In this document: positions 3,727 to 7,567 of the stretch, piece after piece
Position numbering within the stretch: position 1 is the stretch's first letter
Layout: every line of letters starts with the position of its first letter
Assembly (NCBI GenBank): GCA_019056805.1
Contig: DXJG01000009.1
Span: forward strand, 90,001 to 122,000
DNA from: Candidatus Baldrarchaeota archaeon
GTDB taxonomy: Archaea > Asgardarchaeota > Baldrarchaeia > Baldrarchaeales > DXJG01
Length of the DNA: 32,000 nucleotides
Direction: 5' to 3'
Translations under genes and position numbers: made by a program
The notes under the pieces: model-generated
Databases searched by the model: none
Seen by the model: the letters and a program-made list of their open reading frames with translations, nothing else
Told to the model about the DNA's origin: nothing

Positions 3727-4686
3727 ATGGTGGGTGCTTATTTGAAAACTGTGATACTTGCAGCTGGCCCCGGACAAAGATTAGGAAATCTTACCAAATA
3801 TATTCCCAAACCTCTCCTTCCTGTAGCCAATAGACCAATAATTGAAAGACTACTTAAAGCTTTAGAAAATACAGGAATTAAAGATATCATAATAGTGGTA
3901 GGTCATCTAGGTGACAAGATAATTAAGGAAATAGACGCTTTCGAAAATCTAAATTTACAAATTAAATACATAAAGGCCAAAGAATATATGAAAGGCCCAA
4001 TATTTTCTTTTCTATCAGCCATAAGCGAACTAATGGGAGAAGATTTCATTTTATGTCCAGCAGACTGTTTAGTAAGTCCACATACCATAAAAAAGCTTTT
4101 AGAAGATGCAAAAAACAAAACAACTCTTACCGTCTGTACACATGCAAAAGAAGGATCAACGGTATATATTGGAAACAATCTAGAAGTGAAAGGAGTTGTC
4201 GTTCCTGTTAAGAAATGGGCAAAAACTGCAAAATCCATAGGAATAATGTATGCAACCTCAGAATTTCTAAAATATGTGGAAAAAGCGGTGGAAAAAGGAA
4301 AAACAAAGATAATCGATGCAATAAACATAGCAATTAAAGAAGAAATGGAGATTAAGGCAACATATGTTAGAGATCAGAATTGGTTTGATGTAGATGATGT
4401 ATCAACACTATTGGAAGCAAACAAACATTATCTAGAGAACTTACTTCATACCGATAGTAAATGGAATATACCCAATGTAAAAATAATCCCTCCAGTTCTA
4501 TTGGGAGATGAAGTGAGCATAGAGGGGAATTGCGAAATAGGACCCTATGTATCCATTGATAAAAAAGTGCAAATTGGAGAAAAATGTAAACTAAAAAACA
4601 TAATAGTCCTAAAAGAATCAAAAATACCACCAAAAAAAGTACTTTTTGATGGTGTTTTTTATAAAAATGATTTTTACAGTAAGTAG
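3727..4686 (+). CDS. Sugar-1-phosphate nucleotidyltransferase with C-terminal left-handed beta-helix
   Basis: ILAAGPGQRLGNLTKYIPKPLLPV signature, WFDVDD, C-terminal hexapeptide repeats (PPVLLGDEVSIEGNCEIGPYVSI). Confidence 0.85.
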   Translation: MVGAYLKTVILAAGPGQRLGNLTKYIPKPLLPVANRPIIERLLKALENTGIKDIIIVVGHLGDKIIKEIDAFENLNLQIKYIKAKEYMKGPIFSFLSAISELMGEDFILCPADCLVSPHTIKKLLEDAKNKTTLTVCTHAKEGSTVYIGNNLEVKGVVVPVKKWAKTAKSIGIMYATSEFLKYVEKAVEKGKTKIIDAINIAIKEEMEIKATYVRDQNWFDVDDVSTLLEANKHYLENLLHTDSKWNIPNVKIIPPVLLGDEVSIEGNCEIGPYVSIDKKVQIGEKCKLKNIIVLKESKIPPKKVLFDGVFYKNDFYSK

Positions 4687-4696
4687 AGGGGTAGAT

Positions 4697-5308
4697 ATGT
4701 CTAAAATACGAGTAAAACGATTATTTTATCCGCTAATCAGAAAAATTGCACAAAAGCTTGTAACAACACCAATAACACCAAATTTTCTAACCATTATATC
4801 ATTTTTAACATTAATAGTAGCAACTCTTTCTATTGTTTATCAACAATTTGTAATTGGTGGACTTTTGATATTTCTAGGTGGATTTTTGGACGGATTAGAC
4901 GGAGAACTAGCTAGAATAACAAACAAAACGTCGAAGAAAGGAGCTTTTCTAGATTCGGTAACTGATAGGTACGGAGATTTAATATTATTATTAGGTTTTC
5001 TTTTCTACAACGAAATTAATATTTTAGTAGATTATAATTTTTGGATAATATTAACAATTATAGGAACCTTTATGACAAGTTATGCAAGAGCTAGAGGAGA
5101 AGCACTAGGAGTAGAAAAGACGAATGTTGGACTAATGGCTCGATCAGAACGGTTATTTACTCTGTTTATTGCATGTGAACTAAGCATTTTCAATTCAAAC
5201 ATAGTAGCATATACAATAGTAATTTTGGCATTTTTAACAAACCTAACAGCCCTATATAGAATTTATCTAATTATGAAACAATTAACTAGAACAGAAAACA
5301 GAGATTAG
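4697..5308 (+). CDS. CDP-alcohol phosphatidyltransferase (archaetidylinositol-phosphate synthase/PgsA-like)
   Basis: DGLDGELARITNKTSKKGAFLDSVTDRYGD is the CDP-alcohol phosphotransferase motif; ITPNFLT, SYARARGE and RSERL motifs; hydrophobic. Start placed at ATG 4697, after GAGGGG. Confidence 0.88.
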   Translation: MSKIRVKRLFYPLIRKIAQKLVTTPITPNFLTIISFLTLIVATLSIVYQQFVIGGLLIFLGGFLDGLDGELARITNKTSKKGAFLDSVTDRYGDLILLLGFLFYNEINILVDYNFWIILTIIGTFMTSYARARGEALGVEKTNVGLMARSERLFTLFIACELSIFNSNIVAYTIVILAFLTNLTALYRIYLIMKQLTRTENRD

Positions 5309-6012
5309 CTTTTTATCCATATAACCCTCTTTTCATTCTCCCCTAATCTCTGTACATAGAAACAACGAAGACCAAATTCCCAAGCAATTTTAAATAGAGA
5401 AAGTACACACACGCGAGAACCACAAGTTAAATCAAGAATAACCTCATGAGTAGCAACTTCCTTTTCAATAATAGCCCTAATTTTACGATAAACTTCCTCA
5501 AAATCTTCTTCTAAAACATGTTCCTCAAATTCCTCGAAAACGACATCCTCAGGGACACCAGCAATTTTCCTCTTAAAATTACTCGAAATAACAAAAATGT
5601 ATTTTGAAGGAACTAAGTTATTATCGTTCTTTAAAACTCTACGCATACCACGTACATGCTCTGGGTCATCAAGCCCTCCTACACAAACAATTGGAACACT
5701 AATACCAAAATATTTTCTAACAAGTTGAATTTTCTCAGGTACTATTTCAGCAAATTTAGCTTTCCAGTTATCCCTACCACGATTTCTCCTAATTAAACCA
5801 GCATTTTCCAAAGCCTGAAGATTGAAATATAACATGGCATCAGATATTTCGGTAATAGGACGATTAAAAGCAACAGCTAGAGCATGTCTTAATTCAACAC
5901 CACTCTTTGGCCCATCCAGTAATTTCTTTAAAATAATTCTTCGCGCCTCAACCCCTCCAATAACGTCTTCGACCTCAACAACCTCAGAGGTAACAACCAC
6001 AATAACCACCAC
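5305..6012 (-). CDS. Winged-helix transcription regulator with C-terminal CARF-like domain (wHTH-CARF)
   Basis: N-terminal ArsR/PadR-like wHTH (RRIILKKLLDGPKSGVEL...LYFNLQALENAGLI). C-terminal Rossmann pattern IVCVGG / PSKYIFVIS / EDFEEVYRKI / VILDLTCGSR / RCFYV matches CARF motifs I and II. Start may be GTG at 6003. Confidence 0.65.
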   Translation of the reverse strand: MVVIVVVTSEVVEVEDVIGGVEARRIILKKLLDGPKSGVELRHALAVAFNRPITEISDAMLYFNLQALENAGLIRRNRGRDNWKAKFAEIVPEKIQLVRKYFGISVPIVCVGGLDDPEHVRGMRRVLKNDNNLVPSKYIFVISSNFKRKIAGVPEDVVFEEFEEHVLEEDFEEVYRKIRAIIEKEVATHEVILDLTCGSRVCVLSLFKIAWEFGLRCFYVQRLGENEKRVIWIKS

Positions 6013-6068
6013 ATCTACTGCTCAAATCTTTAAATTCGTAAGGGTGTAGAACCGTATTCACAAAACAT

Positions 6069-6226
6069 TATAGTAACAAATATTACAACAAAATAATAAG
6101 CAAAACATAAATATATATTTTACGATTTGCGAGCAAAGGGAAATCACCCATATTTTGACTCTATGGAAAGTATAATCAACAGAGTAGTTATTGAATTAAA
6201 AACTATACGGTATAGTAACAAATATT
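6069..6226. repeat. Exact 16-bp direct repeat TATAGTAACAAATATT (6069-6084 and 6211-6226); the second copy overlaps palindrome ACTATAC-G-GTATAGT (6202-6216)
   Basis: Read directly from the sequence. Confidence 0.8.
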
Positions 6227-6308
6227 TTCTTCTACGACAAAATACTGACAAAGAATGCATATATCTAGTCAAAGACAAGTTTTCAACTTTTTCTTAAAGA
6301 TCTTTTTA

Positions 6309-6365
6309 ATCTATATAGATGATATCGTCTATATCGACGACTGCCGAAAAAACTTATTATATAAA
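6309..6365 (+). promoter_or_regulatory. Actin promoter (BRE-like CCGAAAAAA, TATA-like TTATATAA 6357-6364) with upstream palindromic operator-like elements
   Basis: ATCTATATAGAT (6309-6320) is a perfect palindrome. ATATAGATGATATCGTCTATAT (6313-6334) is a 22-bp palindrome with one mismatched pair. RBS GGAGG at 6403-6407. Confidence 0.55.
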
Positions 6366-6418
6366 GCTGGTAATAGAATTACAACACTAAAATAAAATTT
6401 GTGGAGGATTAAATAAAA

Positions 6419-7567
6419 ATGACGGAAGAATTATTTCCTGGAAAACCCATAGTTATCGATAATGGAAGTGGTTTTACCAAGAATGGATACGCAGGGGAAG
6501 ATCAGCCTAGAAGCGTTTTTCCAACAGTTATAGGCTATCCAAAATACACCAGTGTAATGACAGATGTCGAACACTACACACGTTCATATTACATCGGAGA
6601 AGAAGCTCTAAACCTAAGAGGAGTTTTAAGAATCGAATACCCAATAGAACACGGAATAATTAAAGATTGGGACGCTATGGAAAAAATCTGGCACTACACA
6701 TTCTTCAACGATCTACGAGTTGATCCCTCAGAACATCCAACACTACTTACAGAACCACCATTAAATCCAAGGAAAAACAGAGAAAAAATGGCTGAAATAA
6801 TGTTTGAAACATTCAACGTACCAGCCATGTACGTATCAATGCAAGCAGTATTAAGCTTATATGCATCAGGAAGAACAACAGGACTTGTAATCGACAGCGG
6901 AGACGGAGTTACCCACATTGTACCAATCTACGAAGGTTTCGCACTCACCCATGCAATCAACAGAATAGATCTAGGTGGAAGAGACGTCACTGAATACTTA
7001 AGAAGACTACTTAGAGAAAGAGGATACGCCCTAATAAGCAGTGCAGAAAGAGAAATCGTAAGAGACATAAAAGAGAAATTATGTTACGTAGCAGTAGACC
7101 CAGAAAAAGAACTAAAACTAGCTGAAAAAGTTTCACCAGAAAAGACGTACACATTACCAGATGGAAGTAGCCTAGTAATAGGAACAGAAAGATTCTTAGC
7201 ACCAGAAATAATGTTCGACCCCTCGCTAATAGGAAAAGAAGAAATGGCAATCCACGAAGCCATAATGGACAGCATAATGAAATGTGACGTAGACGTAAGA
7301 AGAGACATGCTAGCCAATATAGTTCTATCAGGCGGATCCACAATGTTCCCAGGTCTTAAAGAAAGACTACACAAAGAAATCACCGAGGCTCTAGCTGAAC
7401 GTGGTATAACAGGTGTAGAAGTAAAAATAGTTGCACCACCAGAACGACAATTCTCCGTATGGATCGGCGGTTCTATCTTGGCAAGTCTCAAAACATTCCA
7501 AAAACTATGGATAACAAAGAAAGAATACCAAGAAGTAGGACCACAAGTAATCCACAGAACAATATAA
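6419..7567 (+). CDS. Eukaryote-like actin (Asgard Lokiactin type)
   Basis: [110 protein letters not shown]. The TDVEHYTR insert in the D-loop region is typical of Lokiactins. Confidence 0.97.

Follow-up and report, generated by a model that had tools for sequence, protein, structure and literature searches.

A winged-helix CARF protein encoded head to head with actin in Asgard archaea: a candidate signal-controlled regulator of the actin gene

CARF sensor domains are found in proteins with very different outputs. Csa3 (PDB 6wxq, 6w11) is a small dimeric regulator that combines a CARF domain with a winged helix-turn-helix (wHTH), in the order CARF-wHTH; its DNA binding is ligand gated, and it is found in or beside CRISPR-cas loci. 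The CARF domains of the Can2/Card1/VC1899 type (CARF4) and of Csm6 and Csx1 belong to nuclease effectors that respond to the cyclic tetra- and hexaadenylates cA4 and cA6 made by Cas10. RtcR, a CARF-AAA+-HTH activator of the rtcBA RNA-repair operon, answers to RNA-derived ligands, not to Cas10 products, and provides a precedent for a CARF sensor that controls a non-CRISPR housekeeping operon. Here we analyze a gene of the CARF_m5 family in a 32,000-nt stretch of the genome of a Candidatus Baldrarchaeota archaeon (contig DXJG01000009.1, positions 90,001 to 122,000, or G000:C17:90001-122000 in our numbering; hereafter, the window). The gene is divergent from an Asgard actin gene, from which it is separated by a 406-nt spacer, and it probably encodes a dedicated, signal-controlled regulator of archaeal actin. 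Like Csa3, the CARF_m5 regulator joins a wHTH to a CARF domain, and by analogy a similar logic of ligand-gated DNA binding would be expected. However, its wHTH comes first (model residues 1 to 93, with the CARF domain at 94 to 223), the reverse of the order in Csa3, as a first-pass annotation of the window had claimed, and it lies beside actin with no cas gene nearby. Its effector is the wHTH, whereas those of the Can2/Card1/VC1899 and Csm6/Csx1 proteins are nucleases. RtcR is a bacterial sigma-54 AAA+ activator of unlike architecture.

An AlphaFold2 monomer model built on a 26-sequence orthologue alignment has two domains (mean predicted local distance difference test score, 92.2; predicted template modeling score, 0.85). 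It confirmed, at the level of a predicted structure, that the protein consists of an N-terminal winged helix and a C-terminal CARF domain, and the earlier assignment of these two domains was borne out by fold matches and by the hidden Markov models (HMMs) of PADLOC. The N-terminal domain matched RosR with a Z score of 12.7 and ArsR/SmtB, MarR, HxlR, and PadR regulators with Z scores of ~10 to 11 (~10 for PadR, HxlR, and MarR). PadR, RosR, and MarR regulators share this fold but usually carry dimerization helices, in the place of which stands the C-terminal CARF domain of the CARF_m5 regulator; the match to Pfam PadR (PF03551) reached 17.6 bits, below the gathering cutoff of 27. The C-terminal domain forms six strands alternating with helices (model residues 96 to 222). 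The structure search that had been proposed for it matched a dozen solved CARF domains, led by VC1899 (Z 15.3), Can2 (14.9 and 13.7), Cdn1 (13.9), Csm6 (13.3), and Card1 (12.9) and followed by Cad1 (12.4), Can1 (12.2), Cam1 (12.1), and Csa3 (11.5), with root mean square deviations of 1.8 to 2.8 Å over 107 to 125 residues. The best of these, the Can2/Card1/VC1899-type and Csm6/Csx1 domains (Z 12.9 to 15.3 over 114 to 124 residues), are only 12 to 20% identical to it in sequence. Foldseek also matched CARF structures (E values of 2e-6 and weaker, probability 1.00). Since sequence searches against the PDB were insignificant for the CARF domain (profile-to-PDB, Can2, E 0.23), the assignment rests on the PADLOC HMMs and on the fold.

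Among the PADLOC models, PDLC01987 (“CARF_m5--CARF”) gave by far the best match (182 bits, E 2.4e-54, residues 15 to 233 on profile positions 7 to 195), followed by CARF4 (E 7.8e-8) and, more weakly, by Csx1, Csm6, and CasR models. The protein is thus a member of CARF_m5, matching the profile over its full length and better than that of any other CARF clade. The same model was the best match for all actin-linked orthologues tested (including the f7 proteins, at ~25% identity, and the f6 protein; f numbers denote families of the phylum), for an unlinked copy from family f8, and for the CRISPR-linked paralogues described below. A profile search of 1.84 billion representative proteins returned 95 matches at E ≤1e-3 and 11 at E ≤1e-30, and all 10 distant representatives tested also matched CARF_m5 best. 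In public records, members are named helix-turn-helix, PadR family, MarR family, or hypothetical proteins, with the CARF domain unannotated; conversely, the CARF_m5 label covers the CARF domain alone and names neither the wHTH nor a partner gene.

The first-pass annotation had also pointed to a retained DLTxGxR motif. This holds: across the 26 aligned orthologues, D-L-T-C-G-S-R (motif II) follows the pattern D-[LV]-[TS]-x-G-x-[RK], with the aspartate invariant and the glycine at ≥90%, and it conforms to the post-beta4 motif of the CARF superfamily, [DN]-x-[ST]-x-x-x-[RK], which the f7 and f6 orthologues do not retain. An NCBIfam Csa3 match over motif II is weak. A second conserved loop follows beta1, G-[GAS]-L-x-x-[DE]-P (the G-G-L-x-x-D-P stretch), with the proline at ≥90%, unlike the usual Ser/Thr-rich loop at this place. 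From the motif G-G-V-E-A-R at about residue 15 onward, the orthologues share a conserved core. The true start codon is probably GTG 6009 rather than GTG 6012, because the ATG of the orthologue in a sister genome (G002) aligns with GTG 6009.

The head-to-head arrangement recurs across Asgard lineages. We compared the coordinates of regulator and actin in 61 genomes from 20 families of the phylum. A regulator homologue was present in 30 genomes, and in 27 of these it was adjacent to and divergent from actin. The 27 represent 9 of the 10 families that have the homologue (f1, f2, f3, f6, f7, f12, f13, f18, and f20), the diverged f7 and f6 proteins included, so that the pair is not peculiar to one genome, as it might have proved to be when synteny was checked. 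The three unpaired genomes all belong to one genus (f8, Jordarchaeales), in which regulator and actin are on separate contigs or no actin was detected. A maximum-likelihood tree groups the f8 proteins as sisters of actin-linked Frey proteins (support, 100/99), and the loss of pairing in f8 is therefore secondary. Genomes of named GTDB species gave a similar picture, with actin adjacent at 22 of 30 loci from Baldr-, Hod-, Jord/Frey-, Odin-, and Hermodarchaeota; of the other eight loci, three end at a contig edge and the rest are from Jordarchaeales and from one record labeled Thermoproteota. An all-against-all comparison of the neighborhoods from the nine families found only the regulator and actin common to all of them. 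The actin of the window is 70 to 99% identical to the orthologues that adjoin the regulator elsewhere and 70 to 85% identical to the main actin of other pair-bearing families. It had first been called Lokiactin; the divergent arrangement claimed with that name stands, but the host belongs to the Baldrarchaeota, and the gene is an Asgard actin orthologue. In the closed Odin-type genome G005, the actin match (L010:2387-3551, G005:C1; tblastn) falls into two overlapping pieces near the C terminus (query residues 3 to 374 and 345 to 382), which suggests a frameshift or an assembly error.

Within the spacer, a 28-bp imperfect palindrome is the candidate operator. It is one of two blocks that the three genomes of the genus share without a mismatch, the other being the A-rich, TATA-like stretch just downstream of it; the middle of the spacer, by contrast, can no longer be aligned within the genus. 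Inverted pairs of its half-site were found in five families, from Baldr-, Hod- (f20), Jord/Frey- (f18), Odin- (f3), and Hermodarchaeia (f12). Exact half-sites numbered 15 in ~10 kb of spacers versus 0.45 expected from shuffles, a count inflated by the relatedness of the genomes. A GAYGATATC core, present in four families, is always oriented toward actin, and it occurs 24 times in the whole of G000. Although G000 (1.92 Mb) contains 101 isolated half-sites, two of them lie within 40 nt of each other solely in the regulator-actin spacer. Similarly, the exact dyad occurs once each in G052 and G059 and its 14-mer core once in the closed 3.58-Mb genome G039, always in the regulator-actin spacer. A match to the 14-mer core in G010 lies inside a 554-amino-acid (aa) open reading frame (ORF) and is probably due to chance. 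No dyad was found near actin in 20 actin loci without the regulator, and the unlinked f8 genomes have none near regulator or actin, nor anywhere in the genome. The recognition helix of the wHTH, S-D-A-x-L-Y-F-N-L-Q-x-L-E, is near-invariant in the lineages that have the common half-site and deviates in f7, f6, and f13, where the spacer has no exact dyad. This co-variation, which is a correlation only, is the pattern expected if the regulator reads the dyad.

In five classes, the center of the dyad was judged by eye to lie 33 to 41 nt upstream of an A-rich stretch and an actin-side box resembling TTTAWAWA; in the window the distance is ~37 nt, and the predicted promoter is conserved within the genus. 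The dyad would then sit near −60 relative to the start of actin transcription. In archaeal promoters, sites upstream of the transcription factor B recognition element (BRE) and the TATA box usually belong to activators, and because of its distance from the actin-side box we read the dyad as a putative activator site. In Hod-, Odin-, and Freyarchaeal loci (L056, L013, and L007), the actin ORF apparently starts 20 to 45 nt upstream of the aligned start of the window actin, giving short N-terminal extensions and predicted 5′ untranslated regions of ~65 to 130 nt. Other elements of the spacer were discarded. A 25-nt direct repeat (6060-6084/6202-6226; 84% identical, 16 nt exact), whose second copy is not conserved in two sister genomes, is probably nonfunctional or very recent, and the palindrome ACTATAC-G-GTATAGT, considered as a part of the operator, is not conserved even in two sister genomes. 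Rfam gave no match in 5900-6500, and a scan for sigma-70 promoters and terminators, which is irrelevant to archaea, stayed at background level. The coordinates of all features are collected in Table 1.

Table 1. Features of the regulator-actin locus and of related loci (coordinates without a locus label are positions in the window)
Feature	Location	Strand	Details
wHTH-CARF regulator gene, CARF_m5 family	5305-6012	−	235 aa from GTG 6012; stop codon 5305-5307
wHTH domain	5698-5976	−	Residues ~13-105; fold matches, weak Pfam PadR/HxlR matches
CARF domain	5308-5697	−	Residues ~106-235; six-stranded, Rossmann-like; structure and HMM matches
CARF motif II, D-L-T-C-G-S-R	5413-5433	−	Residues 194-200, directly after beta4 (model strand 178-182)
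AT-rich block	6104-6126	−	Conserved within genus; putative TATA region of the regulator gene
Candidate operator	6310-6337		28-bp imperfect palindrome; half-sites C[AG]TCT[AC]TAT around center GATGATATC
Operator half-site ATATAGATG	6313-6321		Minus sense
Operator half-site CGTCTATAT	6326-6334		
Predicted actin promoter	6346-6365	+	A-rich BRE-like run and TATA-like TTATATAA at 6357-6364; assigned by eye
Ribosome-binding site GGAGG	6403-6407	+	11 nt before actin ATG
Asgard actin gene	6419-7567	+	382 aa; Pfam Actin, E 1.6e-138; presumed regulatory target
CRISPR-linked CARF_m5 paralogue	L088:4386-5051 (G010:C4)	−	wHTH-CARF, ~222 aa
CRISPR-linked CARF_m5 paralogue	L089:9784-10455 (G039:C1)	+	wHTH-CARF, ~222 aa
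ComB-like gene	L041:2213-2980	+	Also in L043 and L044
ComB-like gene	L053:2178-2891	+	

That the gene has no CRISPR context, as first noted from the window, was upheld: the window contains no array, the nearest ~7 kb around the regulator are free of cas genes, and the neighbors are housekeeping genes only. Cas10 profiles (TIGR02578 and TIGR02577) found no match in the whole G000 assembly (18 contigs), which is 91% complete, so that absence is not proven. They likewise found none in seven other pair-bearing genomes (G002, G004, G014, G034, G035, G059, and G060), and in two closed, single-contig ones (G015 and G025) nothing beyond a weak hit at the N-terminal end of the Csm1 model. The ligand in G000 is thus probably not a cyclic oligoadenylate (cOA) made by Cas10. 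CARF biology offers oligoadenylates of another source and RNA 2′,3′-cyclic-phosphate ends (as for RtcR) as candidates, and simple adenine nucleotides are a further possibility. The only candidate oligonucleotide synthase seen in G000 is a weak one, a 261-aa Pol-beta-type nucleotidyltransferase gene that adjoins EF-2 (L087:3270-4052, plus strand; G000:C9:308269-309051). Its SMODS match, the only one in the genome, is borderline (27.7 bits versus a cutoff of 26.5); the protein scores better as a generic Pol-beta nucleotidyltransferase and was not accepted as a CD-NTase.

Elsewhere, the family does have ties to CRISPR. Profile searches placed distant CARF_m5 paralogues a few kilobases from Cas10-like genes in G010, G030, and G039. 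The type III loci of G010 and G039 both contain Cas10 and Csx1 (CARF-HEPN), with a CARF7/Csm6-like gene in addition in G010 and type III-D Cas7 and Cas5 in G039. Their place within type III CRISPR loci suggests exaptation: most simply, a wHTH-CARF regulator once associated with CRISPR would have been taken over, early in the evolution of Asgard archaea, for local control at the actin locus. In a midpoint-rooted tree the CRISPR-linked and actin-linked groups fall on opposite sides, although support for this deep split is modest (81/56). Both G010 and G039 also carry an actin-type orthologue and would be natural material for a comparison of ligand pockets. A genome of the same genus as G000, G001 (3.2 Mb, with 9% contamination), encodes a second CARF_m5 paralogue (G001:C117:1664-2191, minus strand) and a full Csm1-type Cas10 (642 bits; G001:C11:1350-3725, minus strand), both of which G000 lacks; these extra genes could reflect strain variation or contamination.

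We infer from these data that the regulator binds the dyad, that actin is its target, that the dyad is an activator site, and that a ligand exists. The protein would be a dimeric winged-helix and CARF one-component transcription factor that binds the dyad in the spacer common to both genes and from there controls transcription of actin and probably also of its own gene; the dyad would act as an activator site for actin, and a nucleotide-type small ligand in the CARF pocket would switch DNA binding. We consider it reasonably likely that a dimeric one-component factor of this kind binds the spacer dyad and controls actin under the command of a CARF ligand. The first interpretation of the locus, in which a nucleotide messenger feeds into actin expression, is supported as far as computation reaches, and neither the structure search nor the synteny comparison refuted it. 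More tentatively, and with less than even confidence, we suggest an ancient Asgard-wide circuit in which a sensor derived from CRISPR signaling puts actin expression under a nucleotide second messenger; this messenger might be an oligoadenylate formed independently of Cas10, a product of RNA ends, or a signal of adenine-nucleotide status.

Several observations weigh against the proposal of a ligand-switched actin regulator. Actin does not require a CARF_m5 regulator: eight families have actin alone, with CARF_m5 found neither beside actin nor anywhere in the genomes searched, and an HMM built from the alignment detected no diverged regulator within 3 kb of 20 actin loci in families without a match. 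The compared genomes are also related, so that the counts given above are not those of independent events. Judged from the sequences, neither the dyad nor the CARF ligand pocket is universal. The exact dyad is missing from the f7, f6, f13, and f2 spacers, and the f7 and f6 orthologues, still paired with actin, have lost the basic residue of motif II (D-V-S-M-G-P-A and D-I-T-H-G-S-E). DAC, GGDEF, and class III cyclase domains were not detected in G000, leaving that genome without a recognized cyclic-nucleotide synthase. Loss of the basic residue and lack of a synthase are what would be seen if the protein were a constitutive regulator of actin or of itself, in which the CARF domain binds no ligand and serves as a dimerization module only. 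This seems unlikely to us, in that the core group (Baldr, Hod, Frey/Jord, Odin, Hermod, and f13) keeps both putative ligand-loop motifs at ≥90% while the CARF sequence around them has diverged to 35 to 50% identity.

The remaining adverse points concern the target. The TATA boxes were assigned by eye, the distance from dyad to regulator varies from ~40 nt (30 to 50 nt) in Odin to ~380 nt in Frey, and the Odin dyad, lying beside the start of the regulator gene, fits a geometry of autorepression. The protein might accordingly regulate only itself or other genes, such as the convergent lipid and sugar genes, with actin adjacency an inherited gene order; nucleotidyltransferase, CDP-alcohol phosphatidyltransferase, and ComB-like genes do recur on the other side of the regulator in three to four families. 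Yet across nine families no neighbor but actin has stayed with the regulator, the distance between dyad and actin-side box is roughly constant in five classes, and each genome tested has a single dyad, so that no distant regulon is visible; we judge this account improbable. The idea that the protein is an ordinary Csa3-like, CRISPR-ancillary regulator that senses Cas10-made cyclic oligoadenylate and sits beside actin by coincidence can draw on the listing of CARF_m5 in a defense database, on the distant paralogues beside Cas10 and Csx1 in type III loci, and on the fact that the nearest CARF folds are cA4 and cA6 receptors. It is very hard to sustain, however, given the Cas10 searches in G000 and the nine other genomes, the lack of cas genes and arrays nearby, and the position of the actin-linked proteins across the midpoint-root split from the CRISPR-linked paralogues, and a pairing with actin that holds in 27 of 30 genomes is not due to chance.

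What is new here is the conserved coupling to actin, the operator-like dyad that is unique within its genome, and the apparent lack of dependence on Cas10. The first-pass annotation knew of no description of a messenger input into Asgard actin expression; the protein family was already catalogued as CARF_m5, whereas for the link to actin a full-text literature search found no paper, although the 2020 census of CARF proteins, which presumably defined CARF_m5, may mention it. In the searchable literature we found neither the name CARF_m5 nor anything on the regulation of an Asgard actin gene. Models of eukaryogenesis give a central place to Asgard actin and to the eukaryote-like proteins that accompany it, and Hodarchaeia are among the proposed closest relatives of eukaryotes. 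The locus now offers a specific candidate regulator for Asgard actin and a candidate operator of 28 bp that has counterparts in five classes, and sensor ligands could be screened with existing panels of cOA and nucleotides, making the proposal testable in vitro without a genetic system. If correct, it would be a clear case of a CRISPR-signaling sensor exapted for a core cellular gene, with CRISPR-linked paralogues persisting in some of the genomes that carry the actin-linked regulator. Were the circuit indeed ancient, it would span Baldr-, Odin-, Hermod-, Jord/Frey-, and Hodarchaeia, and infection, stress, or the energy state of the cell would have a direct hand in remodeling the archaeal cytoskeleton.

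On the far side of the regulator in the window, a gene for a nucleotidyltransferase with a hexapeptide-repeat C terminus (3727-4686, plus strand) overlaps by 41 nt a CDP-alcohol phosphatidyltransferase gene (4646-5308, plus strand), which is convergent with the regulator and abuts its stop codon. Both genes recur in this position in f13, and in f12 the transferase does so too. A gene for a ComB-like 2-phosphosulfolactate phosphatase (PF04029, E 4e-63), absent from the window, is convergent with the regulator in f12, f13, f18, and f6.

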